Shown: positions 5,175 to 63,869, counted from the first letter of the stretch. The stretch: DNA of 64,000 nucleotides from Hyphomonadaceae bacterium (GCA_041398245.1 JAWKVC010000013.1:4104-68103); one strand, 5' to 3'. A program made the numbers and translations. Notes: generated by a model from the sequence alone, not told the origin.

Positions 5175-5229
5175 CCGGTTTGCGGCGCCGCAACGGCATG
5201 CTGCCATGCGCGGCAAGCTGTGCTAGATA

Positions 5230-9036: not shown

Positions 9037-9055
9037 AACTCAGCCGGCTACGACA

Positions 9056-9081
9056 AGGGCCGGACCTTGCGGCCCGGCCCT
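9056..9081. terminator. GC-rich hairpin between convergent genes
   Basis: AGGGCCGG...CCGGCCCT 8-bp stem (alternative GGGCCG/CGGCCC with 7-nt loop). No clear T-tract. Confidence 0.4.
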
Positions 9082-9103
9082 GCACATACGCGCCGAAGCG
9101 CAA

Positions 9104-11097: not shown

Positions 11098-13155
11098 ATG
11101 GAATCGCGCGACCCCGCTGACAACGCCGATCCGCCGGAAGATCCCGCCGAAGACCTTGAACACGAGGCCGAGGACACGCTTCCGCCGGAGACCGAGATGG
11201 AACCCGAGGAAATCTCCTCCGGGATCGATCTCAATGCGCCCGAGGCCGGCAGGAAGCGGCGCATGTCCGGCCCCGATGTCATCCGCGATCAGGTGACACG
11301 CCTGCCGGGCAAGCCGGGCGTCTATCGCATGTATGGCGAGACCGGCGAGCTTCTCTATGTCGGCAAGGCGCGCAATCTCAAGGCGCGCGTTTCGAGCTAC
11401 GCCAAGATCGGCGGACAGACCCAACGCATCGCGCGGATGATCTCGCTCACACGCGCTATGGAATTCGTGGTCACGGCCAGCGAGACCGAGGCGCTGCTTC
11501 TCGAAGCCAACCTCATCAAGAAGCTGAAGCCACGCTTCAACATCATCCTGCGTGACGACAAGAGCTTCCCGCACATCCTGATCCGCGAAGACCATGAAGC
11601 GCCGCAGGCGCTGAAGCATCGCGGCGCCAAGCGCATCAAGGGGCGATATTTCGGCCCGTTCGCATCAGCAGGCGCCGTCGACCAGACGCTGGATACGCTG
11701 CAGAAGGCCTTCCTGCTGCGCACCTGCACCGACAATATCTACTCGACGCGGTCCCGCCCCTGCATGCTGCACCAGATGGGACGCTGCTCAGCGCCGTGCG
11801 TCGGTCTGATCCCGCTCGATGAATACCGCGACCTTGTGCGCGAAGCGGAACGCTTTCTCGATGGCGACGCCGAAACGCTGCTGGAACAGCTCGCGGCACA
11901 GATGGAGCGCGCGGCGTCGAACATGGATTATGAGCGCGCCGCCCGACTACGCGACCGCATCCGCGCCCTCTCCGCCGTGCGCCAGAGCCAGAGCGTCAAT
12001 CCGGATGGCCTCGTCGAAGCGGACGTGTTCGCGATCCACTCGGAGGCCGGCCAGTCCGCCGTGCAGGCCTTCTTCTTCCGCGCCGGCCAGAACTGGGGCG
12101 CGACGGTCTGGTATCCCAAGCACGATCGCGATGACACGTCCGAACAGGTGCTGACCGCCTTCATAGCGCAATTCTACGACGACAAGCCCGTGCCGAAGCT
12201 GCTCCTTCTCAGCCACGAGATCGAGGAAGAGGAACTGATGACCGAAGCGCTCGAGCTGAAGGCCGGGCACAAGGTCGAAATCCGCACGCCGAAGCGCGGC
12301 GAGAAGCGGGGGATTGTCGGACAGGCCCTTCTCAACGCGCGCGAGGCGCTGGGCCGCAAGCTGGCCGAAACGCAGAGCCAGCAGAAAATCCTCGCCGCCG
12401 TGCAGAAGGTGTTCGATCTGGCCGAACCGCCCCGGCGCATCGAGGTCTACGACAACTCCCACATCATGGGCACGAACATGGTGGGCGGCATGGTCGTGGC
12501 GGGGCCGGAGGGGTTTGAGAAGACGAGCTATCGCAAGTTCAACATCAAGGACGACGACATCGAACCCGGCGACGACTACGGCATGATGCGCGAGGTGATG
12601 CGCCGCCGCTTCTCGCGCCTGAAGAAGGAGTGGGAGGAAGCCAACACGTCCGCTTCCGACAATCCGGAGGAAACGTCTGAGCGCCGCAGGCCAGACGCCT
12701 GGCCGGATCTCGTCCTGATCGACGGCGGTCTCGGCCAGCTTGGCGCAGCGAAGGAGGCCATCGAAGCGGTCGGCTTCGCGCCCGGAGAGCTCAATCTCGT
12801 CGCCATCGCCAAGGGGCCGGATCGCAACGCCGGACGCGAGCAGTTCTTCCGCCCCGGCCGCGCGCCGTTCCAGCTGCCGCCAAACGATCCGGCGCTCTAC
12901 TATCTCCAGCGCCTGCGCGATGAAGCACACCGGTGGGCCATCGGCGCGCACCGCGCCAAACGCTCCGCAGCCATCACCGGACAGAACCCGCTGGATGAGA
13001 TTCCCGGCGTCGGCCAGCGGCGCAAGAAGGCCCTGCTCCATCGCTTCGGCTCGGCCCGGGGCGTAAGCCGCGCAACGGTTGCCGATCTCCAGACGGTTGA
13101 AGGCGTCAACGCGGCGCTGGCCCAGCGCATTTACGATCACTTCCACGGGGGCTGA
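11098..13155 (+). CDS. uvrC: Excinuclease ABC subunit C
   Basis: GIY-YIG (GVYRMYGE..LLYVGKARNLKARV), UVR domain (YERAARLRDRIRAL), endonuclease domain (IEVYDNSHIMG) and C-terminal HhH (IPGVGQRRKKALLHRFGS). It has an acidic N-terminal extension, and the start is uncertain (11062, 11098 or later). Confidence 0.95.
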   Translation: MESRDPADNADPPEDPAEDLEHEAEDTLPPETEMEPEEISSGIDLNAPEAGRKRRMSGPDVIRDQVTRLPGKPGVYRMYGETGELLYVGKARNLKARVSSYAKIGGQTQRIARMISLTRAMEFVVTASETEALLLEANLIKKLKPRFNIILRDDKSFPHILIREDHEAPQALKHRGAKRIKGRYFGPFASAGAVDQTLDTLQKAFLLRTCTDNIYSTRSRPCMLHQMGRCSAPCVGLIPLDEYRDLVREAERFLDGDAETLLEQLAAQMERAASNMDYERAARLRDRIRALSAVRQSQSVNPDGLVEADVFAIHSEAGQSAVQAFFFRAGQNWGATVWYPKHDRDDTSEQVLTAFIAQFYDDKPVPKLLLLSHEIEEEELMTEALELKAGHKVEIRTPKRGEKRGIVGQALLNAREALGRKLAETQSQQKILAAVQKVFDLAEPPRRIEVYDNSHIMGTNMVGGMVVAGPEGFEKTSYRKFNIKDDDIEPGDDYGMMREVMRRRFSRLKKEWEEANTSASDNPEETSERRRPDAWPDLVLIDGGLGQLGAAKEAIEAVGFAPGELNLVAIAKGPDRNAGREQFFRPGRAPFQLPPNDPALYYLQRLRDEAHRWAIGAHRAKRSAAITGQNPLDEIPGVGQRRKKALLHRFGSARGVSRATVADLQTVEGVNAALAQRIYDHFHGG

Positions 13156-13162
13156 CCACTGC

Positions 13163-13182
13163 GGTTCCCGCTTTCGGGAACC
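13163..13182 (+). terminator. Hairpin downstream of uvrC
   Basis: GGTTCCCG-CTTT-CGGGAACC, perfect 8-bp stem. No T-tract. Confidence 0.4.
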
Positions 13183-13258
13183 CGCATCGCCTGCCACATT
13201 CAGGTCCGATTCATCGGCAATCCATAGCCTTCAAGCGTTCGCAATCAGGTGGGGACAC

Positions 13259-13909
13259 ATGCGTCACGTCAGCAGTCTTGCCCCGGCCGCCTGTCTTGCC
13301 GCCCTCCTTTTCACGACGCTGCCCGCCGCGGCGCAGACGGGGTCCAGCGCCGCCAGCGCCAACGCCACGCGCGTCATCCCGATCCAGCCGCCCCAGTCAG
13401 ATCCGGAGCCGCGCTCCGGCGCCTACGCGATGCTGGTCGATTTCTCGCGCGGCTTCGTCACGGCGCAGACGCAGTACAGCGCCAACGTGATCTCCGACAC
13501 GTTCGCGGCGGCGCTGCAGCGGTCGCGCGACGCGGTGCGTGAGAACTCCCAGCCGATCCCCGAAGCCGTACGCAAGGGCCTGCTCCCCTTCTTCACCGAG
13601 GAAATGCTGAGCGGCGTTCGCTACACCATCGGCGACACCAGCCAGACCGGTCTCGCCGGTTTTGCGATCCGCAATGGAAATGCCGCCGCGGTCACGCTGA
13701 TCGACACGATCGTCTTCAAGGACGAGAAGTACGTGAACAGCCTTGCCCTGTGGGCGCACGAAATGCACCACATCGAGCAGTATCGCGACTGGGGCGTTGC
13801 CGGCTTTGCCGCGCGCTATGCCTTCGGCTGGAAGGATGTCGAGGCGGAAGCCTCCGCCCGGGCAAAGGACTTCGTCACCTGGTATCGCGCGCACGCGGGC
13901 GGCCAATAG
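13259..13909 (+). CDS. Secreted DUF4157-like putative zinc-metalloprotein
   Basis: Signal peptide MRHVSSLAPAACLAALLFTTLPAAAQ. LSGVRYTIGD...AAAVTLIDTIVFKDEKY...LWAHEMHHIEQY follows the DUF4157 pattern ending in an HExxH-like motif. Confidence 0.6.
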   Translation: MRHVSSLAPAACLAALLFTTLPAAAQTGSSAASANATRVIPIQPPQSDPEPRSGAYAMLVDFSRGFVTAQTQYSANVISDTFAAALQRSRDAVRENSQPIPEAVRKGLLPFFTEEMLSGVRYTIGDTSQTGLAGFAIRNGNAAAVTLIDTIVFKDEKYVNSLALWAHEMHHIEQYRDWGVAGFAARYAFGWKDVEAEASARAKDFVTWYRAHAGGQ

Positions 13910-13968
13910 GCTTTCGCTTTCACTGAAATTGGCGGATTGTCTCTCCCTACGGGGAGAGAAACATATCC

Positions 13969-15000
13969 ATGGCCGAAGCGATCATCGAACCCGATCTTCC
14001 GATCATCGACCCGCACCATCACCTGTGGGACCGGCGGCCCGTGATGCACCTGATCCCGCCGCCCAAGCATCCGTTCGAACACATCAGCTATCGCAAGGGC
14101 CATTACCTGCTCGACCAGCTGCTGGAAGACACAGGCTCGGGCCACAACATCGTCGCCACGGTCTATCTCGAATGCCGTTCAATGTATCGCGCCGAAGGCC
14201 CGGCCGAGATGAAGCCGGTCGGCGAGACGGAGTTCGTCAACGGCGTCGCCGCCATGGCGGCCAGTGGACTCTACGGCAAGACGCTGGCCTGCGCCGGCAT
14301 TGTCAGCCACTCAGAACTGCTGCTCGGCGCGGACGTCGGCCGCGTGCTCGATGCGCATATGGCGGCAAGTCCGCGCTTCAAGGGAATCCGCCGCTCGACC
14401 TCGTATGACGCCGACCCTGATGTGCTGGGCCCGCTCAACCGCAATCCGCCCGGCGTGATGATGGAGCCGAAATTCCGCGAGGGCTTTGCCGAGCTCGGCA
14501 AGCGCGGACTTTCCTACGACGCCTGGCTGCTGGAGCCGCAGCTGCCGGAAGTGATCGACCTTGCGCGGCAATTCCCGGACACGCCCATCGTACTCGACCA
14601 TGTCGGCACGCCGCTGGGCTATGCCGGCTACACGGGCAAACTGCCCGAACGGTTCAATATCTGGCGCGAGAACATCCACGAGCTGGCGAAGAGTCCGAAT
14701 GTGCATGTGAAGCTGGGCGGGCTCGCCATGCCGTTCTGCAACTTCCCCTCCATGCTCTCCGAGGCGCGGGCGCCATCGGAACAACTGGCGAAGGAATGGG
14801 CCCCCTATGTCGAAACCTGCATCGAGGCGTTCGGCGCCAAGCGAGCAATGTTCGAAAGCAACTTCCCGGTCGATGAAGTCAGCTGCGATTATCCGACGCT
14901 GTGGAACGCGCTGAAGCTGATCGCGAAGGGCGCCAGCGCGGAAGAGAAGCACGAACTGTTCTATGGCGCGGCCAACAGGTTCTACAAGCTGGGGTTGTAG
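13969..15000 (+). CDS. Amidohydrolase-2 family (TIM-barrel metal-dependent hydrolase)
   Basis: IIDPHHHLWD at the N-terminus, VLDHVGTP and FESNFPVD motifs typical of PF04909-type hydrolases. Confidence 0.85.
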   Translation: MAEAIIEPDLPIIDPHHHLWDRRPVMHLIPPPKHPFEHISYRKGHYLLDQLLEDTGSGHNIVATVYLECRSMYRAEGPAEMKPVGETEFVNGVAAMAASGLYGKTLACAGIVSHSELLLGADVGRVLDAHMAASPRFKGIRRSTSYDADPDVLGPLNRNPPGVMMEPKFREGFAELGKRGLSYDAWLLEPQLPEVIDLARQFPDTPIVLDHVGTPLGYAGYTGKLPERFNIWRENIHELAKSPNVHVKLGGLAMPFCNFPSMLSEARAPSEQLAKEWAPYVETCIEAFGAKRAMFESNFPVDEVSCDYPTLWNALKLIAKGASAEEKHELFYGAANRFYKLGL

Positions 15001-39726: not shown

Positions 39727-41143
39727 ATGTCAAAACGTCTGGCCGCTCTTTGCGGGATTGTTCTTGCGATCGCGATGGCAGCGCCCGCGTCCGCGCAGAT
39801 CATCCTTGGCGGAGAACCCGTGACGACGCCGGGCGAACCCGCGCCAGTTGCGCTGACCTTCCCTGTCGATGCCGACGCCGCCGGCTACAGCCCGGTCAGC
39901 GTCGCCGCACCCGCCTTCTCTGGCGCCAGCGAAGCTGAGGCGGACCTCGCCGCAAAGATCGCCGGGGTCGTGCGCGATGATCTGGCCTCCATCGGCATCT
40001 TCACCGCGCCCGACAGCGCCGCCATCTCGACCTTCTCCGCCGACATCGCCGCCCTTCCCGGCTGGATGGACTGGATCGGCGCCGGCGTCGGCGCGCTGGT
40101 CGTCGGCAAGACCATCATCGGCGCGGACGACTCGCTCACCGTCCAGTTCCGCCTCTACGACATCGCCGCCCGCAAACAGGTCGTCGGCTCGCAGTATCGC
40201 CTGCCTGCAACCGACCAGTGGCGCCGCGCCGCGCACAAGGTGGCTGATGAAGTGCTGGTCGCGCTTGTCGGCGGCAAGGGCGGGTTCGACAGCCGGATCG
40301 CCTATGTCGCCGATACTGGCGCCACGCCTTCGCCCAGGCGTCGTCACCGCGAACGCCGCCGAACGGGAAACGCTTCTGCCCAACGCCGCCGGGCTCGAAG
40401 CGCCGCGCGTTGCACCGGACAATTCGGGCCTTGTCTATTCAGCCAACGCGCCGGTTCCCGGCAAGCCGAACCAGGCGCAACGCACAACGATCCTCTACGA
40501 TCTCGCTTCGGGTCAGCGCCAGCCGCTGACCACGCAGAGCCAGCCGAACGCCGACACGCGCTATTCCGCTGACAGCGCGTCGCTGGTCTACAGCCGCAAG
40601 CAGGGCGCCAACACCGACATCTACAAGATGTCCCTCGCCACACGCGCTGAAACGCGCCTGACAGACGACAAGGCCGTCGACGAACAGCCCGCCCTGTCGC
40701 CGGACGGAACGCGCTTCGCCTTCGTGTCCGATCGCGGCGCCGGTCAGGGCGTCTATGTCGCCCGCGTCGATGGCGCGCCGCTCCGTTGCGCCGATGGCAG
40801 CGAAGCAAAGGCCTGCAAGCTCACCACAACAACGGGCGATCACGAAGGCCCGGTCTGGTCGCCGCGCGGGGACTGGATCGCCTATGCACGCGTTGTCGGC
40901 GAAGACGCCGCCATCCATCTGGTGCGCCCCGACGGATCAGAAACGCGCGCGCTCACCACGCCCGGCAAGAACGTCCTCGATCTGCACCCCACCTGGTCGC
41001 CCGAAGGCCGCCGCATCGCGTTCTATCGCGTCGCCGGCTCGAACTCGGCGCTGCATGTCGTGCCGCTTTCCGGCGGCGCGCCGCGCAAGCTCGGCCTCTC
41101 CGGCGACTCCTACGAACCCGACTGGGGCCCCAAGCTTCCCTGA
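39727..41143 (+). pseudogene. TolB-like periplasmic beta-propeller protein with one frameshift
   Basis: Signal peptide MSKRLAALCGIVLAIAMAAPASAQ, then a TolB N-domain-like region up to GGFDSRIAYVADTG. The frame changes near 40320-40335. The propeller repeats continue to the stop (PRVAPDNSGLVYSA, PALSPDGTRFAFVSDR, PVWSPRGDWIAYAR, PTWSPEGRRIAFYR). It is not in a tolQRA-pal context. Confidence 0.75.
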
Positions 41144-41220
41144 TCCGGCTTGCACTTGACCGAGAGCAAGTACTGTTGATCTTCGGTGCGCCAGTCTGGC
41201 TGTATCGAGGAGACCGACCC

Positions 41221-41592
41221 ATGCGCATGTCCCACGCCATTCTTGCCGCCCTGGCGCTAACGGCGTGCACGACTGAACCGCCCGGCCCGCTGCAGATGGG
41301 CGATCCCGAGGTCGGCCATCAGGTCGCCAAGGATCTGTGCTCGGATTGTCATGCGGTCGAGCGCACGGGCGACAGCCGCAATCCCGCCGCGCCGCCGCTA
41401 CGCACCGTGCTGGCCGGCTATCCGCCGGAATGGCTGGCGACCGACCTGCACGACGGCCGCACCATCGCGCTGCGCAAGATGCCGACCTTCCACTTCGGCG
41501 AAGGCCATGAGTACGACCTCGTCGCCTATCTCATCCAGATCCAGGATGTGCCGGCGCCCCGCCCCAATCTCGGGCCGCAGGGTCAGCCCTGA
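41221..41592 (+). CDS. Mono-haem cytochrome c lipoprotein
   Basis: Lipobox ALALTAC, haem motif CSDCH, and a downstream Met (RKMPTF) as candidate axial ligand. Confidence 0.7.
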   Translation: MRMSHAILAALALTACTTEPPGPLQMGDPEVGHQVAKDLCSDCHAVERTGDSRNPAAPPLRTVLAGYPPEWLATDLHDGRTIALRKMPTFHFGEGHEYDLVAYLIQIQDVPAPRPNLGPQGQP

Positions 41593-42315: not shown

Positions 42316-42798
42316 ATGGCAACCTACACAATCAACGTGAACGGAAAGACCGAGACGGTAGAAGCCGATCCGGCCATGCCCCTTCTCTGGGTGTTGCGGG
42401 ACAAGCTGGACCTGAAAGGCACCAAGTTCGGCTGCGGCATCGCCATGTGCGGCGCCTGCACCGTGCATCTCGACGGCAAGGTGACGCGCGCTTGCGTAAC
42501 GCCGGTTTCAGCGGTCGGCGCACAGCGTGTCACGACCATCGAGGCGATCGGCGAAACCAAAGCCGGACAGGCGGTCCAGAAAGCCTGGCTCGACGTGGAC
42601 GTCATGCAGTGCGGCTACTGCCAGGCTGGTCAGGTGATGGCCGCCACTGCCCTGCTGAGCGCCAACCCGGCCCCGTCCGACAAGGACATCGACACGGCCA
42701 TGCAGGGCAATCTCTGCCGCTGCGGCACCTACAAGCGCATCCGCGAGGCGATCAAGACCGCCGCGGGCGTCGACACCAAAGACATGCGGGAGGTCTGA
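42316..42798 (+). CDS. (2Fe-2S)-binding small subunit of an aldehyde oxidase/isoquinoline 1-oxidoreductase-type enzyme (IorA-like)
   Basis: Plant-type and second [2Fe-2S] motifs [11 protein letters not shown] and CGYCQAG...CRCGTY. Confidence 0.92.
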
Positions 42799-42801
42799 TC
42801 C

Positions 42802-45060
42802 ATGGCTGACGGCAACATCGTAACCTCGCGCCGCTTCTTCCTCTTCGCCTCCGCTGCGGGCGGCGGCCTCGTGCTCTCCGGCTGCATGACCCCGCCGGAC
42901 ACGACGGATGGCGCTCCAACCGTCGCCGCCGATCCGGCCAAGCCGCCGGCCCCGGTCGTCGACATGAACAACTTCGTCGCGATCTCGCCTGACGGCACGA
43001 TCCGCATCATGGCGAAGAACCCGGAGATCGGTCAGGGCATCAAGACCATGCTGCCCATGCTGGTCGCGGAAGAACTCGACGCCGACTGGAACAAGGTCGT
43101 CATCGAACAGGGCGACGCGGATGCGGCCCGCTACGGCATGCAGATCGCCGGCGGCTCGTTCGCCACGCCGATGCACTGGGAGCCCCAGCGCCAGGTTGGC
43201 GCCGGCGCCCGCGCCATGCTCATCGCCGCCGCCGCAGCGCGGCTGGAGAAGCCGGTTGAGGAATTCACGACCGAGCCCTCCATGGTTGTCCACGCGGCTT
43301 CCGGAACGAAGATACCCTACGGCGATCTCGTCGCCGACGCTGCGAAACTGCCGGCGCCGGACGTCAAGACGCTGAAGATGAAGGATCCCAAGAACTACCG
43401 CCTCATCGGCAAGCCGATGCGCAACTGGGATTCCCCGAAGATCGTCCGCGGCGAGCCCATCTTCGGCATCGACCAGAAGGTCGACGGCATGAAGTACGCG
43501 AACTTCGTGAAGTGCCCGGCGTTCGGCGGCAAGGTCGTTTCGGCCAACACAGCCGAGATCAAGGCCATGCCCGGCATCGTCGACTGCTTCGTCGTGAAGG
43601 CGGCGGGCGACGACATGCCGACCAAGATGGGTCTGCTGGATGGCGTCGCCATCATCGCCGACGACTGGTGGACGGCGAAGGAAGCGGGGAACAAGCTGAA
43701 GGTGGAGTGGGACGAAGGCGACGTCTCGACCCAGTCGACCACGCAGTTCAACGCCAAGGCGATGGAACTGGCGAAAGGCGCTCCGGCGTCCAACCTGTCC
43801 AAATCCGGCGATGCGGCGGCGGCGCTCAAGGGCGCAGCCAAGACGGTCCAGGGGTCCTATATCTATCCCTTCCTCGTGCACGCCCCGCTGGAGCCGATGA
43901 ACTGCACGGCGCACGCGAAGGCCGACGGCACGGTGGAAATCTGGGCGCCAACCCAGCGCCCCGATGGCGGTCTCAGCCTCGTGGCGTCCGCGCTCGGCGT
44001 CGAGAAGAGCAAGGTCACCTGCCACATGATCCGCTGCGGCGGCGGCTTCGGCCGGCGTCTCGACAGCGACTTCATGGTGGAAGCGGCCGCGATCTCGAAG
44101 CAGGCCGGCAACATCCCGATCAAGCTGGTGTGGACGCGTGAGCAGGACATGGCTCACGACCCCTACCGTCCGGGCGGCTATCACAACTTCAAGGCCGGCC
44201 TCGACGCCAACGGCAACATGGTTGCGATGACCAACCACTTCGTCACCTTCGGCCGCCCGAACGGGTCGGGTCAGATGACGGTGCTCGGCAACGCCCAGAT
44301 GCCGCCGCAGGAATTCCCTGCCGGCTTCGTTCCGAACCACAGCTACGACCAGTCGATGATGCACGGCGAAATGCCGACCGGTCCGCTGCGCGCGCCGGTG
44401 TCCAACGCGGTCTGCTTCGCCTTCCAGTCCTTCGTGGACGAAGTTGCGCACGCCGCCGGCAAGGACCCGCTGCAATACCGCATCGACCTCCTGTCATCGC
44501 CGCAACCGGGTCTGGCTGCGCCGGGCCCGCGCTCGATGGATCCGAAGCGGATGATCGGCGTGCTTGAAGTCGTGCGTCAGCGGTCCGGCTGGGCCAGCCG
44601 CACATCGTTGCCAAAAGGCACGGGCATGGGCGTCGCCTTCTACTTCTCGCACCAGGGCTATTTCGCCCAGGTCGCCAAGGTGAAGGTCGAGCAGAACGGC
44701 GCATGGCGCGTGTTGAAAGTGTGGTCGGTCGGCGACGTCGGCGCCCACATCATCAACCCGCTCAATGCTCACAACCAGGTCGAAGGCTCGATCGTCGACG
44801 GCATCTCCGAGATGCACCAGAAGATCTCGTTCGACAAAGGCCGCACCGTGGAATCCAACTTCCACAACATGCCGCTGCTGCGCATGGACTACGCGCCGCA
44901 GATCGACGCGCACTTCCACCTCACCGACAACTCGCCGACGGGCTTGGGCGAACCGGCCCTGCCGCCGGTGCTGCCGGCTGTGGCCAACGCCCTCTTCGCG
45001 GCGTCGGGCAAGCGCATCCGCACCCTGCCTGTCGCCCAGTCCGAGCTGCGCTGGACCTGA
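42802..45060 (+). CDS. Molybdopterin-binding large subunit (IorB-like, xanthine dehydrogenase family)
   Basis: Tat-like leader SRRFFLFASAAGGGLVLSGC. Aldehyde oxidase/xanthine dehydrogenase a/b hammerhead and Moco domains (GGGFGRRL, PTGLGEPALPPVLPAVANA). Confidence 0.92.
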   Translation: MADGNIVTSRRFFLFASAAGGGLVLSGCMTPPDTTDGAPTVAADPAKPPAPVVDMNNFVAISPDGTIRIMAKNPEIGQGIKTMLPMLVAEELDADWNKVVIEQGDADAARYGMQIAGGSFATPMHWEPQRQVGAGARAMLIAAAAARLEKPVEEFTTEPSMVVHAASGTKIPYGDLVADAAKLPAPDVKTLKMKDPKNYRLIGKPMRNWDSPKIVRGEPIFGIDQKVDGMKYANFVKCPAFGGKVVSANTAEIKAMPGIVDCFVVKAAGDDMPTKMGLLDGVAIIADDWWTAKEAGNKLKVEWDEGDVSTQSTTQFNAKAMELAKGAPASNLSKSGDAAAALKGAAKTVQGSYIYPFLVHAPLEPMNCTAHAKADGTVEIWAPTQRPDGGLSLVASALGVEKSKVTCHMIRCGGGFGRRLDSDFMVEAAAISKQAGNIPIKLVWTREQDMAHDPYRPGGYHNFKAGLDANGNMVAMTNHFVTFGRPNGSGQMTVLGNAQMPPQEFPAGFVPNHSYDQSMMHGEMPTGPLRAPVSNAVCFAFQSFVDEVAHAAGKDPLQYRIDLLSSPQPGLAAPGPRSMDPKRMIGVLEVVRQRSGWASRTSLPKGTGMGVAFYFSHQGYFAQVAKVKVEQNGAWRVLKVWSVGDVGAHIINPLNAHNQVEGSIVDGISEMHQKISFDKGRTVESNFHNMPLLRMDYAPQIDAHFHLTDNSPTGLGEPALPPVLPAVANALFAASGKRIRTLPVAQSELRWT

Positions 45061-45089
45061 TCCGGCCCGTCAGCAAGGCAGTCGAATCG

Positions 45090-45125
45090 CGGCCCGGAAC
45101 TTCGGTTCCGGGCCGTTTCGTTTCT
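45090..45125 (+). terminator. Rho-independent terminator after the IorB-like gene
   Basis: CGGCCCGGAAC-TTCG-GTTCCGGGCCG, perfect 11-bp stem, followed by TTTCGTTTC. Confidence 0.65.
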
Positions 45126-45256
45126 GGACGAACTTTCCGCAAGGGTAAGCCCGGCCATTATCGACAATCGCCAAGCCCCAGCGCTTTCGCTTCTCCGGAT
45201 AGCAGAGTTGTGACCTTTCGGGCCCCTCTTTCGGCCTCCAGAGGCTACAGTCCGCA

Positions 45257-45285
45257 TTGACGGTATTTTGGGCAGAATGGATATT
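45257..45285 (+). promoter_or_regulatory. Candidate sigma-70-type promoter
   Basis: TTGACG-N17-GATATT in an AT-richer stretch, 60 bp upstream of the 45345 start. Confidence 0.35.
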
Positions 45286-45344
45286 GAAATCAGAATTACA
45301 TCCGTAAAGGACGCGCCCGGTAAACGGGCTGAGGGAGAGCTGGA

Positions 45345-47312
45345 ATGAAGCGCATTCTGATGACGACCGCCGTGGCCGCCGCCATCGCTGTCGCTGGCGT
45401 AAGCACGGTGATCGCCGCACCGGCGCCGACGACCGGCGGAGCGCCGGAGCGTGTCGGCAACTTCCAGCTGACGGACACGACCCGTCTTGCGCACGAGTTG
45501 TTCTACTTCAAGTACGCCCCGGCCATCGTGATCATGTCGCAGACGAATGGCGGCAAGGTTTCGCGCGAAGGCGCGGCCCAGCTGGCCAAGCTCCAGTCCG
45601 CCTACAAGGACAAGGGCGTCCTCTTCTACATGATGAACTCCACCCTCGGCCAATCGCGCGAGGATACGGCGAAGGAAGCCAAGGCGCAGAAATTCGCCAT
45701 GCCGGTCCTGATGGACGAACTGCAGCTCGTCGGCGAGGAGCTCGGCGTCCAGCGTGAGGGCGAGGTCTTCGTGATCGAGCCGAAGTCGGGCTTCAAGGTC
45801 GCCTATCACGGCCCCGTCTCGCAGACCGGCAAGGCGATCGACTCCGTGCTCGCCGGCAAGGCCGTCGCCAACGCGCGTGTCGAAGTGAAGGCCGGCAAGG
45901 AGATCGCCTTCCCCGAGCGCGGCAAGGCGGCTGAGCACGCCAACATCTCCTACACCAACGACATCGCGCCGATCATCCAGGCCAAGTGCGTGGCCTGCCA
46001 CCAGGAAGGCGGCATCGCCCCCTTCAAGTTCGACAGCTATGAAGTGGTGAAGTCGTTCGCGCCGATGGTCACCGAGTCGGTGATGGCCGATCGCATGCCA
46101 CCCTACTTCGCCGATCCGCATATCGGCACGTTCCAGAACGACCACGGCCTCACCGCCGAACAGAACAAGACGCTGATCCACTGGCTCCGCGCCGGGGCCC
46201 CGCGCGGCGAAGGCGCCGACGTGCTGAAGGAAACCGCCAGCAAGGCGCCGGAATGGCCCACCAGCCTCGGCCAGCCGGATGTCGTCGTTACGCTGCCGGC
46301 GTTCGACGTTCCCAACACGGGCACGGTCGAATACCAGCGCATGCAGATCGACAACCCGTTCAAGCAGGACACCTGGCTGCGCGCCATCGCGATCAAGCCG
46401 GGCGACCGCACGGTGCTGCACCACGTCACGTCGAACCACTCGCCGGATCGCAACGCCGCGCCGGCGAAAATCCCGGGCGGCTCGGTCGGCTCCTACACGC
46501 CGGGCGCGGAACCGCAGGTGATCGCGGCTGGCGCAGGCGCGCCGGTCCCGGCTGGCGGCAAGCTGTCCTTCTCGATGCACTACACGACAACCGGCAAGGC
46601 CGCGACCGACCAGACCCAGATCGGCTACTACACGCTGAAGACGGCGCCGGAATTCATCAAACGCTCGGCGGTCATCTCCGACTTCGCGCTGAAGATTCCG
46701 AAGGGCGAAGCCCGCCACACCGAGATCGCGTATCTCGAATTCCCGGCCGACGCCTATCTCTACACGCTCTATCCGCACGCCCACTATCGCGGCTGGTCGG
46801 TCGAGCTGACCTCCAAGACGCCGGACGGCAAGGAAGAGATCCTGCTGTCGCTGCCGAAGTACGACTTCAACTGGCAGCGCGACTATGACCCGGTGGAGCC
46901 GATCCTCGTGAAGGCCGGCACCAAGCTGATCGCCAAGTGGGTCTACGACAACTCCGAACACAACAAGGCCAACCCCGATCCGACGATCAACGTGACCTGG
47001 GGCGAGCAGTCGTGGGAAGAGATGATGTACTTCCGCGTCAACTATCGGTGGGCCGACGAGACGACGTCGAACATCCGCAACGACCTCCAGGGCAAGCTGA
47101 TGGCGTCGCGCACGATGGGCGCGCTCGACAACAACGCCGATGGCAAGGTCCAGATCGAGGAGCTGACGGGCACCATGGCGTCCGTGAAGGCCCGCTTCGC
47201 GGATCTCGACCTCAACAAGGATGGCGGTCTCGACAATGCCGAGCTTGCCGCCGGCAACGTCTCGCGGGCCAGCGCCACGCGCGATCAGCGCGATGCGGAC
47301 ATCGACCTCTAG
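45345..47312 (+). CDS. Periplasmic multidomain protein: redoxin-like / cytochrome c / copper type II monooxygenase-like / EF-hand pair
   Basis: Signal peptide, then an AhpC/redoxin-like region without Cys (aa about 35-160). CVACH haem motif (C215, C218, H219) with RMPP. HH359-360, H412, H478-x-H480 and M560/M561 follow the PHM/DBH spacing. EF loops are DNNADGKVQIEE (595-606) and DLNKDGGLDNAE (622-633). Confidence 0.85.
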   Translation: MKRILMTTAVAAAIAVAGVSTVIAAPAPTTGGAPERVGNFQLTDTTRLAHELFYFKYAPAIVIMSQTNGGKVSREGAAQLAKLQSAYKDKGVLFYMMNSTLGQSREDTAKEAKAQKFAMPVLMDELQLVGEELGVQREGEVFVIEPKSGFKVAYHGPVSQTGKAIDSVLAGKAVANARVEVKAGKEIAFPERGKAAEHANISYTNDIAPIIQAKCVACHQEGGIAPFKFDSYEVVKSFAPMVTESVMADRMPPYFADPHIGTFQNDHGLTAEQNKTLIHWLRAGAPRGEGADVLKETASKAPEWPTSLGQPDVVVTLPAFDVPNTGTVEYQRMQIDNPFKQDTWLRAIAIKPGDRTVLHHVTSNHSPDRNAAPAKIPGGSVGSYTPGAEPQVIAAGAGAPVPAGGKLSFSMHYTTTGKAATDQTQIGYYTLKTAPEFIKRSAVISDFALKIPKGEARHTEIAYLEFPADAYLYTLYPHAHYRGWSVELTSKTPDGKEEILLSLPKYDFNWQRDYDPVEPILVKAGTKLIAKWVYDNSEHNKANPDPTINVTWGEQSWEEMMYFRVNYRWADETTSNIRNDLQGKLMASRTMGALDNNADGKVQIEELTGTMASVKARFADLDLNKDGGLDNAELAAGNVSRASATRDQRDADIDL

Positions 47313-47335
47313 TCGACGCATCCATCACCAACAGG

Positions 47336-47368
47336 AAGGCCCGCTCTCAGGAGCGGGCCTTTTCTTTT
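47336..47368 (+). terminator. Rho-independent terminator
   Basis: AAGGCCCGCTC-TCAG-GAGCGGGCCTT, perfect 11-bp stem, followed by TTCTTTTC. Confidence 0.7.
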
Positions 47369-47972: not shown

Positions 47973-48389
47973 CTACTTGCCCTGCGCGCCGGCGCGATTG
48001 ATGGCGACCTCATCCAGCATGGCCTGCTCGCGCGCCTGACGCTCCGTCTCCTCGCGCACGCGGCCCTGCTCGATCAGCTGTTCTAACTTCGACTTCTCGA
48101 TATAGGCGGCCGACAGCCGCTCGCGGATTTCCGCCAGCTCGGCCTCCTTGGCGCGAACGACGACGCCGATCTCGTCCACCTGCCAGCGCACGCGCAGGCG
48201 ATAGGCCGGCAGCGTGGCGGCATAGTCCGGATTGGCGGCAGCCGCGGCGATCTCCGCCTGCTCGCGCGCGCGTATGCCGGCGATCTTCTGCTGCAGCTCG
48301 TCCACCTCCCGCGCGGCCCGGGCCGCCTCGATCCCCAGCTCGTCAAGCTTGCGCTGCGCGATCTTGAGAAGGGTGTGGAGCGATTTCAT
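47973..48389 (-). CDS. fliJ: Flagellar export chaperone FliJ
   Basis: 138-aa all-coiled-coil protein, Glu/Arg/Ala rich. Its start overlaps the fliI stop (ATGA). Confidence 0.75.
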   Translation of the reverse strand: MKSLHTLLKIAQRKLDELGIEAARAAREVDELQQKIAGIRAREQAEIAAAAANPDYAATLPAYRLRVRWQVDEIGVVVRAKEAELAEIRERLSAAYIEKSKLEQLIEQGRVREETERQAREQAMLDEVAINRAGAQGK

Positions 48390-49747
48390 CTAACCGCCTT
48401 CTTCTGGCTGGCGGCCGGCGCCGGCGGCGTCAGCACGGCAAGAAGCTTCTCATAGGCCTCGTCAGGCGTTGTCACTTCCTGCACCTCCTGGCTCAGGAAG
48501 GTCTCGATCTGCGGCCACAGGCGCACGGCCTCATCCACTTCCGGGTCCGCGCCCTTGGCGTAGGCCCCGATGCGAACGAGCTCTTCCATGTTGGAATAGA
48601 GCGCGATCAGCTTGCGCGCCTTGCGGGCGATATCGCGCTCCTGCGGCGTCTGCAGCATCTGCTGAAGGCGCGAGATCGACTTCAGCACATCGACCGCCGG
48701 GAAGCGCCCTCGCTCGGCGATCTGGCGCGACAGCGTGATGTGCCCATCAAGAATGCCGCGCACGGCGTCGGAAATCGGTTCGTTGTGATCATCGCCATCG
48801 ACCAGCACCGTGAACAGACCGGTGATGTGGCCCTGCGGCTGGCCGTCCTCCACCGTCACGCCCGGCCCCGCCCGCTCGAGCAGTTTGGGCAATTCGGCAA
48901 AGACCGACGGCGTGTAGCCGCGCGTCGTCGGCGGCTCGCCGGCGGCAAGGCCGATCTCGCGCTGGGCCATGGCGAAGCGCGTGACGCTATCGAGGAAGCA
49001 GACCACCTGCTTGCCCTCGTCGCGGAAGTGTTCGGCGACAGCCAGCGTCAGCCACGCCGCACGGCGGCGCTTGGGCGCGGGCTCGTCCGATGTCGCCGTG
49101 ACGATGACGGACTTGGCCAGCCCCGCCTCGCCCAGCGTGTCCTCGATGAATTCACGAACCTCGCGGCCGCGTTCGCCGATCAGACCAATGACGATGACAT
49201 CCGCTTCCGCCCCGCGCGCCAGCATCGACATGATGGTCGACTTGCCGACGCCCGATCCGGCGAAGACGCCCAGTCTCTGCCCGCGCGCGCACGGCGCAAA
49301 CACGTCGATCGCCTTGACGCCCAGACCCATCTTCTCGTCGACCCGCGCGCGCGCCTGCGCATTGGGGGCGATGGCGCGGACCGGCCGCGCCCGCAGGCCG
49401 GGGCGCAGCGGCCCCTTGTCGTCCAGCGGTTCGGCGAATGCATCCATCACCCGTCCCAGCCAGGCGTCGGACGGACGCACGCTGTCGAGGCCGGAAGCAA
49501 AGATGACGGGCGCGCCCGGGGCCAGCCCGTCCAGCGGATCGCTTGCCAGAAGGATGGCGCGGTCGCCCTCGAAGCCCACGAGTTCGCCGCGCGGACCGTT
49601 CTCGGACCCGAAACGAACGAATGCCCCCAGGCGAAGGGCGGAGGCAGGCCCGGCCGCCTCGATCCGCAGGCCCTCAAGCGCCGTCACCCGGCCTTCATGG
49701 GTCAGGGGGTCCAGCGCCTTGATATCGCGGATGGCCGAAGCCAGCAT
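48386..49747 (-). CDS. fliI: Flagellum-specific ATP synthase FliI
   Basis: 453 aa. Walker A GSGVGKST. F1/T3SS ATPase fold motifs (VIGLIGERGREV, LDSVTRFAMAQREI). Confidence 0.95.
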   Translation of the reverse strand: MLASAIRDIKALDPLTHEGRVTALEGLRIEAAGPASALRLGAFVRFGSENGPRGELVGFEGDRAILLASDPLDGLAPGAPVIFASGLDSVRPSDAWLGRVMDAFAEPLDDKGPLRPGLRARPVRAIAPNAQARARVDEKMGLGVKAIDVFAPCARGQRLGVFAGSGVGKSTIMSMLARGAEADVIVIGLIGERGREVREFIEDTLGEAGLAKSVIVTATSDEPAPKRRRAAWLTLAVAEHFRDEGKQVVCFLDSVTRFAMAQREIGLAAGEPPTTRGYTPSVFAELPKLLERAGPGVTVEDGQPQGHITGLFTVLVDGDDHNEPISDAVRGILDGHITLSRQIAERGRFPAVDVLKSISRLQQMLQTPQERDIARKARKLIALYSNMEELVRIGAYAKGADPEVDEAVRLWPQIETFLSQEVQEVTTPDEAYEKLLAVLTPPAPAASQKKAVR

Positions 49748-49827: not shown

Positions 49828-49997
49828 CACGCAAACCCCAAAAGAATCAGCGATTTTGGACTCTTGGCGGCCGGCAGAATCACAGTAACAAGTCTGAATC
49901 GGTTCCGCCGTCGTTAAGTAATCCGTTAACCTCTAGAGTGCCTAATGCGGTGGTTAATTACTCCGCCGCAAGGCAACCGCGATTCGGGAGAGACGTA

Positions 49998-50711
49998 ATG
50001 CGGGTCTTGTTGATCGAGGATGACGAGCAGGTCGCTCGCAGCATCGAACTGATGCTGAAAGCCGCCGGTTTCAACATCTTCACGACCGACCTTGGGGAAG
50101 ACGGTGTCGACCTCGGCAAGGTCTACGAATACGACCTTATCATCCTGGACCTCGGTCTGCCGGATATCTCAGGCTATGAAGTCCTGAAACAGCTCCGCAT
50201 GTCGCGCGTGAACACGCCCGTGCTGATCCTGTCGGCGAACCCCGATATCGAAGCGAAGGTGAAGACGCTCGGCTATGGCGCCGACGACTATCTCACCAAG
50301 CCGTTCAACAAGGACGAGCTGATCGCCCGTATCACCGCGATTGTCCGCCGTTCGAAAGGCCACGCCGAGAGCGTGATCCGCACCGGCGACATCATCGTGA
50401 ACCTGGACGCCAAGACCGTCGAAGTGAACAACAACCGTGTTCACCTCACCGGCAAGGAATACCAGATGTTCGAGCTGCTCTCCCTGCGCAAGGGAACGAC
50501 GCTCACCAAGGAAATGTTCCTCAACCACCTCTACGGTGGCATGGACGAACCGGAACTCAAGATCATCGACGTCTTCATCTGCAAGCTTCGCAAGAAGCTG
50601 GCGCAGGCGACGGGCGGTGATCACTTCATCGAAACCGTCTGGGGGCGCGGCTACGTTCTTCGCGATCCGGACCCGAGGGTTGCGGCAGCGGTCGCGGACC
50701 AAGCTGCCTGA
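49998..50711 (+). CDS. ctrA: Cell-cycle response regulator CtrA
   Basis: MRVLLIEDD..., receiver Asp in [60 protein letters not shown]...[14 protein letters not shown] is nearly identical to the Caulobacter CtrA C-terminal domain as I remember it. Confidence 0.93.
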
Positions 50712-58982: not shown

Positions 58983-60455
58983 TCAATGATTCGCCTGGGG
59001 CGCGGCCCCGGACTCTCCCGGCCCGAGAACAGCTTCGATCGCGGGCTGATCTTCCTGCGGATCGGCAAGCAGGCCTTCCCATTTCGCAATCACAGCACAG
59101 GCGATTGAATTGCCGATAACATTTGTCGCCGTTCGCCCCATGTCCATGAAGGCATCGACGGCGAGCACCAGCGCGATCCACGCCGGATCCATTCCCATCG
59201 CCGGCAGCGTTGCGGAAATCACCACGAGCGAGGCGCGCGGCACGCCGGCAATGCCCTTCGATGTGACCATTAGCAGCAGCAGCATTCCGATCTGCTGTTC
59301 GAGGGTCAGCGGGATGCCCATGGCCTGCGCGATGAACATCACCGCGAAGGTGCAGTACATCATCGAGCCGTCGAGATTGAACGAGTAGCCGAGCGGCAGC
59401 ACGAAAGACACGACACGGTTGGCGATGCCATGCCGTTCCAGCTGCTCAAGCAGGCGCGGATACGCCGCCTCCGAACTCGCCGTCGCGAAGGCGAGCAGCC
59501 CCGGCGCGCGCACGTCCCAGATCAGCCTGAAGACGCGTGGCCCGAGGATCAGGAAACCCACCGCGATCAGGAGGCCCCACAGGATGAAGAGCGCGATGAA
59601 GAATGTGCCCACCAGGCGGCCATAGTCGGCGATGACGCCCAGCCCCTGCAGCGAGACGGTGTAGGCGAGCGCGCCGAACACGGCGAGCGGCGCGGCCGCC
59701 ATCACATAGCCGGTCACCTTGAGCATCAGAAACGCGACCTGCTCCATGATCTCGGTGACCCGCGCGGTCTTGTGGCCGAGCGCCTGCAGCGCCATGCCAA
59801 GGAACAGCGACACCACCACGATCTGCAGGATCTCGTTGCGCGCCATGGCGTCGGCGATCGAGGTCGGGAAGACGTGGGTAAGGAACTCGGACACCGAGAA
59901 TGTGCCGGTCGACACCGACGACACGTCGGCCACCGCGGTCTCCAGCGTGACCGGGAAGTTCACCCCCGGCTTCAGCAGGTTCACGAGGGTCAGGCCCAGC
60001 GCCAGCGAAGCGAGGGAGGCTGTGATGAACCATCCCATGGTTCGCGCGCCGATCCGCCCGACGGCCGCGCCGCCGCCCAGATGGGCGATCCCGACCGTCA
60101 GCGTCGTGAGCACGAGAGGGGCGACGATCATCTTGATTAGGCGCAGGAAAATATCCGACAGGATCTTGAAATAGCCCGCCATGTCGGTCTGGAATTTTGT
60201 CGGCGCCTTCTCGATTTCGGCCGCCGTCGCCTCGCCATTCTTGTTGCGGTCGGCCTGCGCGAAGGTGATGTCAGCCTCGGCGCGCGAGGCGTTGAACTCG
60301 GTCTCATTGAGGGCGCCGCTGCGGTCCGCGTCGTACGCTGCAATGCGCTGCTCAGCCGCCGCGACCCGGCCGCCGGAGTCGCCGTAAACCAGCGCGCCGA
60401 CAACAACCCCCAGGATCATCGCCACGATCAGGCCGATGAAAATCAAACGCTGCAT
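58983..60455 (-). CDS. Dicarboxylate/amino acid:cation symporter (DAACS, GltP/DctA-like) with EF-hand insertion
   Basis: DAACS core (IFLRLIKMIVAPLVLTTLTVGIA, GIAGVPRASLVVISA). A roughly 60-aa insertion after TM1 carries DADRSGALNETE and DRNKNGEATAAE. Confidence 0.9.
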   Translation of the reverse strand: MQRLIFIGLIVAMILGVVVGALVYGDSGGRVAAAEQRIAAYDADRSGALNETEFNASRAEADITFAQADRNKNGEATAAEIEKAPTKFQTDMAGYFKILSDIFLRLIKMIVAPLVLTTLTVGIAHLGGGAAVGRIGARTMGWFITASLASLALGLTLVNLLKPGVNFPVTLETAVADVSSVSTGTFSVSEFLTHVFPTSIADAMARNEILQIVVVSLFLGMALQALGHKTARVTEIMEQVAFLMLKVTGYVMAAAPLAVFGALAYTVSLQGLGVIADYGRLVGTFFIALFILWGLLIAVGFLILGPRVFRLIWDVRAPGLLAFATASSEAAYPRLLEQLERHGIANRVVSFVLPLGYSFNLDGSMMYCTFAVMFIAQAMGIPLTLEQQIGMLLLLMVTSKGIAGVPRASLVVISATLPAMGMDPAWIALVLAVDAFMDMGRTATNVIGNSIACAVIAKWEGLLADPQEDQPAIEAVLGPGESGAAPQANH

Positions 60456-62759: not shown

Positions 62760-63869
62760 TCAGCCCTCGTCGCGGTCACCCTTCTCGGAGATGTTGCGGC
62801 CTTCCCGGTCAGCGGCGCGGCCGCCTTCGAGAATGCCCAGCAGGCCGTGATTGCCCTCATGACAGGCGTATTCGTAGACGTTGTCGTCCACACGGTTGAG
62901 GCCGACCTCGCCTTTCCACACCTGCGTGTACAGCGCCGGATCATTGACCTCGAACTCGTAGAGGATCTGCGAATCCGAATAGCGCGTGAAGCGTTCGATC
63001 ACCTTGCCTGCGGGCGTCAGCAATGCCTGGCTGCCGCCTTCCGGATTCACGTTGATCGTCTCCACCACCAGCGTGTCGCCTTCCCACCAGCCGATCGAGT
63101 CCCCCAGCCACTGGTTGAGCACGGGCGGCTTGTGTTCGGCGTTCAGTGGAATGATGCGCGCGTCGTGCGCCATCTCGACAACGATCACGACATGATCGGG
63201 CGACTGAATGATCTGATAGTTGTTGTTGTAGAGCACGTTCATCATCGGCGGACCGCCCGTGCCGCCGAAGCCGACGATGCAACGCTCGCCCGCGCTGCGC
63301 TCTTCCGGATTGTCATAGCCGGTGCCGCGACCCCGCCCGCCGCGCAGCGACGGCATCAGCTTGCGCCCCTGCTCCGAAACCGGGATCTGCCCGTTCGGCG
63401 GGTCAACGATCCAGGACGTGCGCCACGTGCCTTTGACGTTGGCGTAGGTCGAACCCGGATCGATCCAGAACGAGTTGTAGCCGCGGCCCGAGGCGAGATC
63501 CTTTCCATCTAGAAGACCATCGCCGAGATTCTGGTTGTCGTCCGTCGCCTGACGGATGTTGGAAGGATTGGCCGCGCGCGCCTTCGCCTCTTCCTCGTCG
63601 GTCATCACCAGCGATTTCAGATTGGCCGGCCGCGACATGCGCGTGTTGGATGCGTTCGACCACACGCCCTGCAGGTCCGGCTGGCCGAAGGAGAGGCGCG
63701 GCGCAACAAAGCCCGCCGCAACCCGATCGCCCTCGCTGGCCGGTTTCTCGTTGGGCACAAAGACCCGCGCGCCGGTCTGGGCGGCGGCCTGCGCGGATGC
63801 GGCTCCGGCGCTCCCAACGACCAGCGCAACCGCCATCGCGGCCAGCGAAATGTGGCGCAACCTCAACAT
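62760..63869 (-). CDS. Conserved secreted hypothetical protein
   Basis: Signal peptide MLRLRHISLAAMAVALVVGSAGAASA. 369 aa with YEYACHEGNHG near the C-terminus. No named family recognised. Confidence 0.65.
   Translation of the reverse strand: MLRLRHISLAAMAVALVVGSAGAASAQAAAQTGARVFVPNEKPASEGDRVAAGFVAPRLSFGQPDLQGVWSNASNTRMSRPANLKSLVMTDEEEAKARAANPSNIRQATDDNQNLGDGLLDGKDLASGRGYNSFWIDPGSTYANVKGTWRTSWIVDPPNGQIPVSEQGRKLMPSLRGGRGRGTGYDNPEERSAGERCIVGFGGTGGPPMMNVLYNNNYQIIQSPDHVVIVVEMAHDARIIPLNAEHKPPVLNQWLGDSIGWWEGDTLVVETINVNPEGGSQALLTPAGKVIERFTRYSDSQILYEFEVNDPALYTQVWKGEVGLNRVDDNVYEYACHEGNHGLLGILEGGRAADREGRNISEKGDRDEG

Follow-up and report, generated by a model that had tools for sequence, protein, structure and literature searches.

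A bacterial protein family that joins redoxin and cytochrome c modules to a predicted PHM/DBH-like two-copper core

What is the function of a secreted bacterial protein that carries, in a single polypeptide, a thioredoxin-like module without cysteines, a c-type haem site, a series of histidines and methionines resembling the ligands of a two-copper monooxygenase, and a pair of EF-hands? This question is raised by a gene in a 64,000-nucleotide (nt) stretch of DNA from a Hyphomonadaceae bacterium (GCA_041398245.1 JAWKVC010000013.1:4104-68103), here called the window. The target gene is an open reading frame (ORF) on the + strand at 45345-47312, with an ATG start and a TAG stop, and codes for a protein of 655 amino acids (aa), hereafter the query. 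Full-length homologues at 85-90% identity had the same start and length, and an exact-sequence look-up of the window protein found no identical entry on record. A preliminary description of the locus had likened the ligand series to the CuH and CuM sites of peptidylglycine alpha-hydroxylating monooxygenase (PHM) and dopamine beta-monooxygenase (DBH). All of its motif positions were reproduced when recomputed by script: HH at 359-360, H412, HAH at 478-480 and MM at 560-561, with spacings of 52, 66 and 80 aa.

The 655-aa protein was modeled with AlphaFold2 from a profile alignment of 87 diverse family members (A1), and the model had a mean predicted local distance difference test score (pLDDT) of 92.7 and a predicted template-modeling score of 0.89. 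DSSP assignment on this model delimited a signal peptide, a thioredoxin fold, a helical cytochrome region, two successive beta-sandwiches and a helix-loop-helix-loop-helix tail, with the boundaries listed in Table 1. With the C-terminal region of the A1 profile run against PDB sequences, PHM was found at E 1.4e-7 and DBH at 7e-6; a second profile, made of the C-terminal region alone (A2), found DBH at E 2.2e-7 and PHM at 4e-7. The ligand columns were aligned as well. At the CuH site the HH pair of the family (H359/H360) fell exactly on the HH pair of DBH, whereas relative to PHM it was off by one residue, in a low-confidence stretch of the alignment, and 'qlHyt' (H412) fell on PHM 'QVHYG' (H172). 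At the CuM site 'pHmHyRG' (H478/H480) was placed on PHM 'VHTHHLG' (H242, H244), and 'dEM' (M560) on PHM 'SDEMC' (M314).

The structure model gave the same answer. In a Foldseek search against the PDB, the top 29 matches were all PHM or human DBH, with E values from 3.7e-15 to ~1e-11, ~300 aligned columns and template-modeling (TM) scores of 0.55-0.66 when normalized on PHM. The root-mean-square deviation (rmsd) of these matches was high, 5-10 Å, despite the good TM scores, which fits a different hinge angle between the two copper subdomains of the model. Open and closed conformers are discussed in a review (PMC12164859). A PHM/DBH fold, whose absence would have spoken against the likeness first proposed, was thus recovered by both the profile and the Foldseek searches.

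Conservation was evaluated on a MAFFT alignment of the query and 134 representatives that are 27-68% identical over the core (135 sequences in total). C215, C218, H219, M251, H359 and H480 were present in 135/135, H360, H412 and H478 in 133/135, and M560 in 132/135. All ten proposed haem and copper ligands are therefore kept in 98-100% of the representatives, a pattern that, judged on this alignment, is far beyond chance. The preliminary description had left the CuM methionine open between M560 and M561. M561 varies among the 135 (F, L or M), so that M560 is the predicted copper ligand, and the other half of that proposal falls. E559, directly before M560, is invariant and is the counterpart of E313 in the E313-M314 pair of PHM. 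The position equivalent to PHM Q170 is Gln in 88 of the 135. Around the CuM site the family has, in addition, near-invariant residues of its own: R482, W510-Q511, D535-N536-S537, N540, N543-P-D-P546 and E559. Taken together, these results make it very probable that the query contains a two-subdomain PHM-like core within a haem-copper multidomain protein.

The PHM fold is common to PNGase F, which is not a copper protein. One could therefore imagine a non-catalytic metal-binding or sensor protein, or a PNGase F-like one, that buffers copper or senses Ca2+ or copper, and the EF-hands do suggest metal responsiveness. We consider this very improbable. The best Foldseek matches are PHM and DBH, with no PNGase F among the 50 listed, the two copper sites and the haem are strictly conserved across ~2,000 clusters, which is not what storage or buffering would lead one to expect, and there is no regulatory output domain. 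A PNGase F-like non-copper assignment was rejected on the Foldseek ranking and the ligand conservation.

Directly before the copper core lies the haem module. The only cysteines of the 655-aa protein are C215 and C218, both in CVACH, and because these form the haem-attachment pair the composition fits an extracytoplasmic haem protein. The N-terminus, MKRILMTTAVAAAIAVAGVSTVIA followed by AP, has by eye the n-region, h-region and AxA-like site of a Sec signal peptide, as had been proposed, and in the model this region is a helix (2-18) of low pLDDT. The CVACH site and the RMPP methionine downstream of it, both noted at the outset, proved invariant: RMPP lies at 250-253, and CxxCH (C215, C218, H219) together with M251 is found in all 135 representatives. 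M251 is the presumed axial ligand, giving a His219/Met251 haem of the class I c-type kind. The region 203-297 is predicted to be all-helical. Its Pfam scores in the query were low (PccH, 14.9 bits against a cut-off of 24.4, E ~0.03; Cytochrome_CBB3, 13.2 against 27), and one relative, P0130, passed the cut-off with 37.1 bits for Cytochrome_CBB3. No PSCyt model, the type suggested earlier, was matched in single-sequence scans, and the cytochrome module alone gave nothing significant against PDB sequences beyond the CxxCH motif.

At the N-terminal side of the haem, the proposed redoxin fold was recovered with high significance. With the N-terminal module of the A1 profile, PDB entry 3u5r was matched at E 2.3e-25, 2ywi and 2cvb at values to 1e-22, and ResA at 5e-12; with the query sequence alone, AhpC-TSA was found at E 2.7e-3, below the Pfam cut-off. 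In Foldseek, the N-domain matches (3u5r, 2ywi, 2cvb and ResA) ranked after PHM and DBH, with TM scores of 0.72-0.86 normalized on the target. The first three of these, including 3u5r (SMc02350), match the query module together with its C-terminal extension (TM ~0.72, rmsd 2.4 Å). They are stand-alone proteins, themselves without known function; in the query, haem and copper domains are attached to the module.

The cysteines of 3u5r, 2ywi and 2cvb, in N(R/H)CP(F/Y)V and IGCxIKW, are common to most family members, and the query has Gly and Lys (G70 and K185) in their place, IVIMSQTNGGKVS occupying aa 61-73 in the region of the usual redox cysteine. Among the 135 representatives, position 70 is Cys in 89, within GNGCP, and the second Cys lies near 185 in a 'GC-I' motif. 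The two co-vary: both are present in 81 sequences, neither in 45, and only 9 are discordant. All ten metal ligands are intact with or without the pair. A neighbor-joining tree shows about 20 changes of state for the pair, read as repeated loss, and in the close clade of the query (115 sequences, at least 65% identity) both cysteines are absent throughout. The alignment and the tree thus indicate that the ancestral redoxin motif of the family is a distant Cys pair, and that the Cys-less state is derived and recurrent. The earlier proposal of a redoxin without redox cysteines holds, but the family position is the Cys70/Cys185 pair, not a CxxC.

These data also bear on a reading as a thiol-dependent redoxin or peroxiredoxin, in which the N-terminal domain would carry out thiol-disulfide or peroxide chemistry with the haem and copper modules as accessories. 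Relatives are indeed named 'redoxin domain-containing protein' or 'peroxiredoxin', and 81/135 keep co-varying cysteines like those of 3u5r, 2ywi and 2cvb. The query itself has no Cys outside CVACH, so that for this protein the possibility is refuted by its sequence. As the pair was lost about 20 times with the metal ligands kept, and is lacking in all 115 members of the close clade, thiol chemistry is dispensable for the conserved function. We regard this explanation as extremely improbable; without cysteines, the redoxin module of the query can serve only in structure, docking or binding.

The C-terminal tail holds the two EF-loops, DNNADGKVQIEE (595-606) and DLNKDGGLDNAE (622-633). Both fit the canonical 12-residue pattern (acidic or amide residues at positions 1, 3, 5 and 12, Gly at 6 and a hydrophobic residue at 8), and in the model they are framed by helices at 579-594, 609-621 and 631-654. 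The Ca-ligand positions 1, 3, 5 and 12 are conserved in 112-115 of the 115 close homologues. Precomputed PF13202 matches are recorded for many close homologues; in the query, EF-hand_5 reached E 1.7e-5, its 24.5 bits falling short of the 25.9-bit cut-off. The EF-hand pair of the preliminary description is thus supported. Its distribution is narrow, however: the tail is present in only 19 of the 134 representatives, mostly those nearest the query, with about five state changes on the tree. Longer relatives carry instead Ig-like/He_PIG, alpha/beta-hydrolase, a BlaR1-type anchor plus CBM48, TPR, or a tandem duplication. Since other modules occupy the same slot in relatives, the EF tail is one of several interchangeable accessories, and it marks only one subclade of a redoxin, cytochrome c and PHM-like family. 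All four modules proposed for the query are therefore supported, but the four-module form belongs to a subclade of a three-module family.

This family is large. A word-indexed search returned more than 1,248 homologues of the query, and an exhaustive search of a library of 50%-identity representatives gave 13,523 matches at E <= 1e-3, 1,987 of them at E <= 1e-30. By these counts, the combination of redoxin, cytochrome c and PHM-like core defines a huge family of about 2,000 clusters at 50% identity. Database names of relatives are 'hypothetical', 'redoxin domain-containing', 'peroxiredoxin' and 'mono/diheme cytochrome c family', and none of the cluster names of distant representatives was informative. 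In agreement with the preliminary description, which knew of no characterized bacterial enzyme, no bacterial member was found in the searchable literature, an absence that is no proof because subscription-only papers lie outside its coverage. Two reviews, PMC12164859 among them, describe no bacterial member; in one, PAM figures as a eukaryotic enzyme, and the other is confined to animal enzymes.

What, then, could such an assembly do? On balance, it is likely that the query is a periplasmic, ascorbate-independent copper monooxygenase of the non-coupled binuclear superfamily (PHM, DBH, TBM) that is fed by its own haem c. The haem c (His219/Met251) would be the point at which electrons enter, one at a time, from the periplasmic redox pool. 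They would probably come from the adjacent IorAB-type molybdenum (Mo)/[2Fe-2S] dehydrogenase, exported by twin-arginine translocation (Tat), with the general cytochrome c pool as an alternative. The haem would then reduce CuH, on the subdomain that follows directly in the sequence, and so play the role that ascorbate or DOMON/cytochrome b561 has in the eukaryotic enzymes. CuM would bind O2 and hydroxylate a C-H bond of a periplasmic substrate. In the clade of the query the redoxin module may serve as a non-redox scaffold or docking domain, and the EF-hand pair as a Ca2+-binding accessory with a stabilizing or regulatory role. We infer each of three elements in this scheme, namely monooxygenase activity, the haem in place of ascorbate, and regulation by Ca2+.

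The choice of IorAB as an electron source comes from the genomic context. Upstream of the target gene lie an IorA-like [2Fe-2S] subunit and an IorB-like molybdopterin subunit gene (Table 1). The IorB N-terminus, SRRFFLFASAAGGGLVLSGC (SRRFFL...LSGC), combines a twin-arginine motif with a lipobox behind it, which suggests a Tat-exported lipoprotein dehydrogenase; its Tat signal would place it in the periplasm, the same compartment as the query. No gene for a cytochrome subunit was found near the IorAB genes of the window, and the CVACH of the query is the only credible CxxCH in the region 36-52 kb. This lone motif fits, without proving, a haem that receives the electrons of the Mo-enzyme, and IorAB may accordingly be a redox partner of the query. 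N-heteroaromatics and aldehydes are known substrate classes of IorAB-type enzymes. We analyzed 80 loci from one-genome-per-species contigs, found with the C-terminal alignment A2, and clustered their neighbors; the neighbor counts refer to 81 family copies. The loci span Hyphomonadaceae, Phenylobacterium, Steroidobacter, Povalibacter, Kordiimonas and Pseudomonadales/Cellvibrionales-like bacteria, often with several paralogues per genome. In Alphaproteobacteria the IorAB pair precedes the family gene in the same orientation (L004-L007, L017, L024), and in Gammaproteobacteria it is downstream and convergent (L063, L071, L078, and also L074, a short contig included in only one of the tallies). 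The IorAB-adjacent copies that were checked all have the EF tail and 10/10 ligands. In two Hyphomonadaceae loci, paralogues of the target flank IorA/IorB on both sides (L005, 1717-3648 on the - strand and 7116-9080 on the + strand; L006, 1347-3776 on the - strand and 7116-9083 on the + strand); where identity to the query was calculated (L005, L005b and L006b), it came to 44-46% and 81%. In the window, only the downstream copy is found beside IorAB.

The same context could be read differently. The protein might be an electron-transfer or oxidase subunit, the missing cytochrome of IorAB or of other dehydrogenases, that reduces O2 to H2O2 or H2O and hydroxylates no substrate. The recurrent IorAB adjacency without another c-type haem motif nearby, the pyrroloquinoline quinone (PQQ) quinohaemoprotein dehydrogenases near some copies and the lack of conservation of PHM substrate-binding residues would all fit such a role. 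We nevertheless judge it quite unlikely, given that ~85% of the family copies are not beside IorAB and that the complete pair of His3 and His2Met sites, with the preceding Glu, is kept as in the substrate-hydroxylating enzymes of which it is a hallmark. Two separate copper sites would be superfluous in a plain electron sink, and the invariant family pocket (R482, WQ, DNS, NPDP) suggests a defined substrate.

Several observations weigh against the assignment of a PHM-type monooxygenase linked to IorAB. When the query alone was compared with Pfam and NCBIfam, every module stayed below the gathering cut-offs, so that profiles were needed. PF03712 (Cu2_monoox_C) reached 13.8 bits in the query against a cut-off of 23 (E 0.04), although 14 of 20 family members matched it at E <= 0.01, and PF01082, the model of the CuH domain, was matched neither by the query nor by any of those 20. 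Of the Pfam matches expected earlier for the copper domains, then, the C-terminal one is found in most of the 20 relatives and the N-terminal one in none; the homology to PHM and DBH rests on profile and fold searches, not on Pfam scores. The query carries Ser at the position of PHM Q170. Residues that bind substrate in PHM are not kept: the equivalent of R240, position 476, is variable and Y in the query; that of N316, position 562, is hydrophobic (I, V, Y or F); and that of Y318, position 564, is Tyr in 64/135 and Arg in the query. The chemistry could therefore differ. As for the context, IorAB adjacency was seen in only ~10-12 of the 81 family copies. The target gene is flanked by its own terminators and is thus not co-transcribed with IorAB; an operon at this locus was rejected because a strong terminator separates the genes, and we claim conserved proximity only.

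How close, then, is the query to the known enzymes? With PHM (PDB 1PHM, 1OPM, 3MLL) it shares the two-beta-sandwich core, where the best Foldseek match was found, the order and similar spacing of the His-His...His and His-x-His...Met sites, the Glu before the Met ligand and, in most family members, the Gln at the Q170 position, at a sequence identity of only ~14-15%. In contrast to PHM, it is bacterial and periplasmic, has no disulfides and lacks conservation at the clamp positions R240 and N316; it adds redoxin-fold, cytochrome c and EF-hand modules, and its predicted donor is haem c rather than ascorbate. The catalytic core is likewise shared with the DBH/TBM/MOXD1 group (PDB 4ZEL; Foldseek E 1.7e-12), in which DBH has the best A2 profile score and also an extra N-terminal domain before the core. 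An N-terminal domain of that kind is linked to electron supply in DOMON/cytochrome b561 proteins. The query is prokaryotic and has no dimerization domain, and its N-terminal partner consists of a thioredoxin fold and a c-type cytochrome instead of DOMON. Without the PHM clamp, and with no Cys outside CVACH and hence no disulfides, it is not a PHM orthologue; with its own invariant residues in place of the carboxylate clamp, its substrate is probably not a peptidyl-glycine. We conclude that: i) the query is homologous to PHM, DBH and TBM, and ii) it is an orthologue of none of them, because its Pfam scores stay below the thresholds, disulfides and the PHM clamp are absent, and the partner domains differ.

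The proposed logic, a haem that feeds an extracytoplasmic copper site, has parallels in the transfer from the cytochrome of cellobiose dehydrogenase to lytic polysaccharide monooxygenase (LPMO) and from cytochrome b561/DOMON to DBH-type enzymes. These systems would be analogous only: the query has a haem c instead of a haem b, another copper fold and a single polypeptide, and there is no homology. The LPMO parallel leads to a further possibility, peroxygenase-type chemistry in which CuM would use H2O2 in place of O2 and two electrons, or copper chemistry on polymers or protein side chains at the cell surface, with the haem as a priming reductant instead of a stoichiometric donor, as in LPMOs. 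The periplasmic or extracytoplasmic location and the conservation of the metal sites would fit it equally well, and the CBM48, Ig-like/He_PIG and alpha/beta-hydrolase modules of relatives recall polymer-active enzymes. Those modules are heterogeneous and absent from the query, however, and PHM-family enzymes are established as O2-dependent. This alternative seems distinctly improbable to us.

We return to the haem-fed monooxygenase and to its possible significance. PHM, DBH and TBM are textbook eukaryotic enzymes, in which the entry of electrons at CuH and their crossing to CuM are still debated. A bacterial homologue that is soluble, free of disulfides and equipped with a covalently bound, spectroscopically visible haem donor would be an easy system in which to study electron transfer to CuH and on to CuM. 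It would also show that the oxygen-activating PHM/DBH scaffold is widespread in bacteria, and would correct thousands of 'redoxin' and 'hypothetical' annotations. If its substrate were found, a new route of periplasmic hydroxylation could come to light in heterotrophs that abound in soil, freshwater and the sea, among them Hyphomonadaceae, Phenylobacterium, Steroidobacter and Cellvibrionales-like Gammaproteobacteria. The most far-reaching version, in which the family is the first recognized bacterial PHM/DBH branch, a self-sufficient, ascorbate-independent periplasmic hydroxylase that is fed through its haem c by IorAB, so that a Mo hydroxylation using water and a Cu hydroxylation using O2 are redox-coupled, with Ca2+ gating or stabilizing the assembly, is unlikely in its entirety. 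Were the family indeed one of bacterial hydroxylases, its ~2,000 clusters would represent a large reservoir of extracytoplasmic C-H oxidation in aerobic environmental Proteobacteria. For this very large and so far unstudied family, the fold is firmly assigned and the function predicted.

Table 1. Features of the target gene, its product and its upstream neighbors (window coordinates; module boundaries from DSSP of the AlphaFold2 model)
Feature	Coordinates	Strand	Basis and details
Whole gene, secreted four-module protein	45345..47312	+	ORF translation and full-length homologues
Sec-type signal peptide, aa 1-24	45345..45416	+	sequence features; cleavage probably after VIA
Thioredoxin-fold module (TlpA/ResA/AhpC-TSA-like, 3u5r/2ywi/2cvb subfamily), aa ~35-200	45447..45944	+	profile, Foldseek
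Mono-haem c-type cytochrome module, aa 203-297	45951..46235	+	CVACH at nt 45987-46001 (aa 215-219), Met251 in RMPP
PHM/DBH-like N-terminal beta-sandwich (CuH), aa ~305-435	46257..46649	+	ligands H359/H360/H412; profile alignment, Foldseek, conservation
PHM/DBH-like C-terminal beta-sandwich (CuM), aa ~436-572	46650..47060	+	ligands H478/H480/M560; profile, Foldseek, conservation
C-terminal EF-hand pair, aa 579-654	47079..47306	+	loops aa 595-606 and 622-633; Pfam, DSSP, conservation
Shine-Dalgarno-like GAGGGAGAG	45331..45339	+	read from sequence; ends 5 nt before ATG, GGAG core 7 nt before
Weak sigma-70-like promoter candidate TTGACG-17-GATATT	45257..45285	+	9/12 consensus positions
Intrinsic terminator of upstream IorB-like gene	45089..45126	+	12-bp stem (hairpin 45089-45116) and T-rich tail; scan; fold -26.4 kcal/mol
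Intrinsic terminator of target gene, GGCCCGCTC-TCAG-GAGCGGGCC-TTTTCTTTTC	~47334..47368	+	read from sequence; fold -24.9 kcal/mol
IorA-like [2Fe-2S] subunit	42316..42798	+	Pfam
IorB-like molybdopterin subunit	42802..45060	+	Pfam; twin-arginine signal and lipobox

Both terminators that had been proposed around the target gene were found. The upstream one separates it from the IorB-like gene; the downstream one, with a GC-rich stem of 9-13 bp, a TCAG loop and a T run, was absent from the pattern-scan list, though visible in the sequence. The candidate promoter is present but agrees only weakly with the consensus, and shuffled sequences would be expected to yield 0.5 such sites against the 1 observed. 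Rfam showed no known RNA element, either across the window or within the 5' leader of the target gene.

Other neighbors were recorded in the same analysis. PQQ quinohaemoprotein dehydrogenases (PQQ plus cytochrome c) occur in locus L001 at 12527-14605 on the + strand, 2.5 kb downstream of the orthologue, and in L003 at 5184-7475 on the - strand, divergent and adjacent to a 66%-identical relative; they formed no recurrent cluster in the 80-locus analysis. Downstream of the target gene the window carries fliJ and fliI (export ATPase) at 47973-49747 on the - strand, followed by a CtrA-like OmpR-family response regulator at 49938-50711 on the + strand, none of which is a conserved neighbor in the close relative L001. 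A sodium:dicarboxylate symporter family protein (58983-60455, - strand) has weak N-terminal EF-hand-like matches (E 0.002-0.005, below the cut-off) that are probably due to chance. Upstream, at 39869-41592 on the + strand, a TolB/PD40-like ORF of 424 aa corresponds to one of 471 aa in L001, and an ORF in another frame (40786-41592) that carries a CSDCH motif overlaps it; the discrepancy could be a frameshift or a spurious ORF in high-GC DNA.

A family of secreted proteins of ~350 aa, here c2, lies within 3 kb of target-family genes in ~17 of the 81 copies and directly adjacent in 8. The c2 gene of the window (62760-63869, - strand) codes for a secreted protein of 369 aa and is 15 kb from the target. 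This protein has an invariant Cys197 and a YEYACHEGN motif (Cys336), matches no Pfam, NCBIfam or PDB sequence, and has more than 8,000 homologues, all named 'hypothetical'. An AlphaFold2 model built with database homologues had moderate confidence (pLDDT 72.8), and its C-terminal beta-barrel was weakly similar to the hydrophobic-ligand barrels of FABP/CRABP (E ~1e-3, TM 0.45-0.5); c2 may carry a substrate or act as partner to the copper enzyme. In three loci related to the 3' end of the window (L084, 5799-8116; L086, 897-4042; L087, 679-3824), a tandem c2 paralogue (68% identical) and a WCGPC TlpA-type redoxin stand ahead of the orthologue of the window c2 gene. The idea that this stand-alone redoxin is a detached counterpart of the target's N-domain was set aside: it belongs to the classical WCGPC TlpA type, and the relationship goes no further than the general fold. 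The window ends 131 nt past c2, and the tandem arrangement of c2 and redoxin probably continues just outside it.

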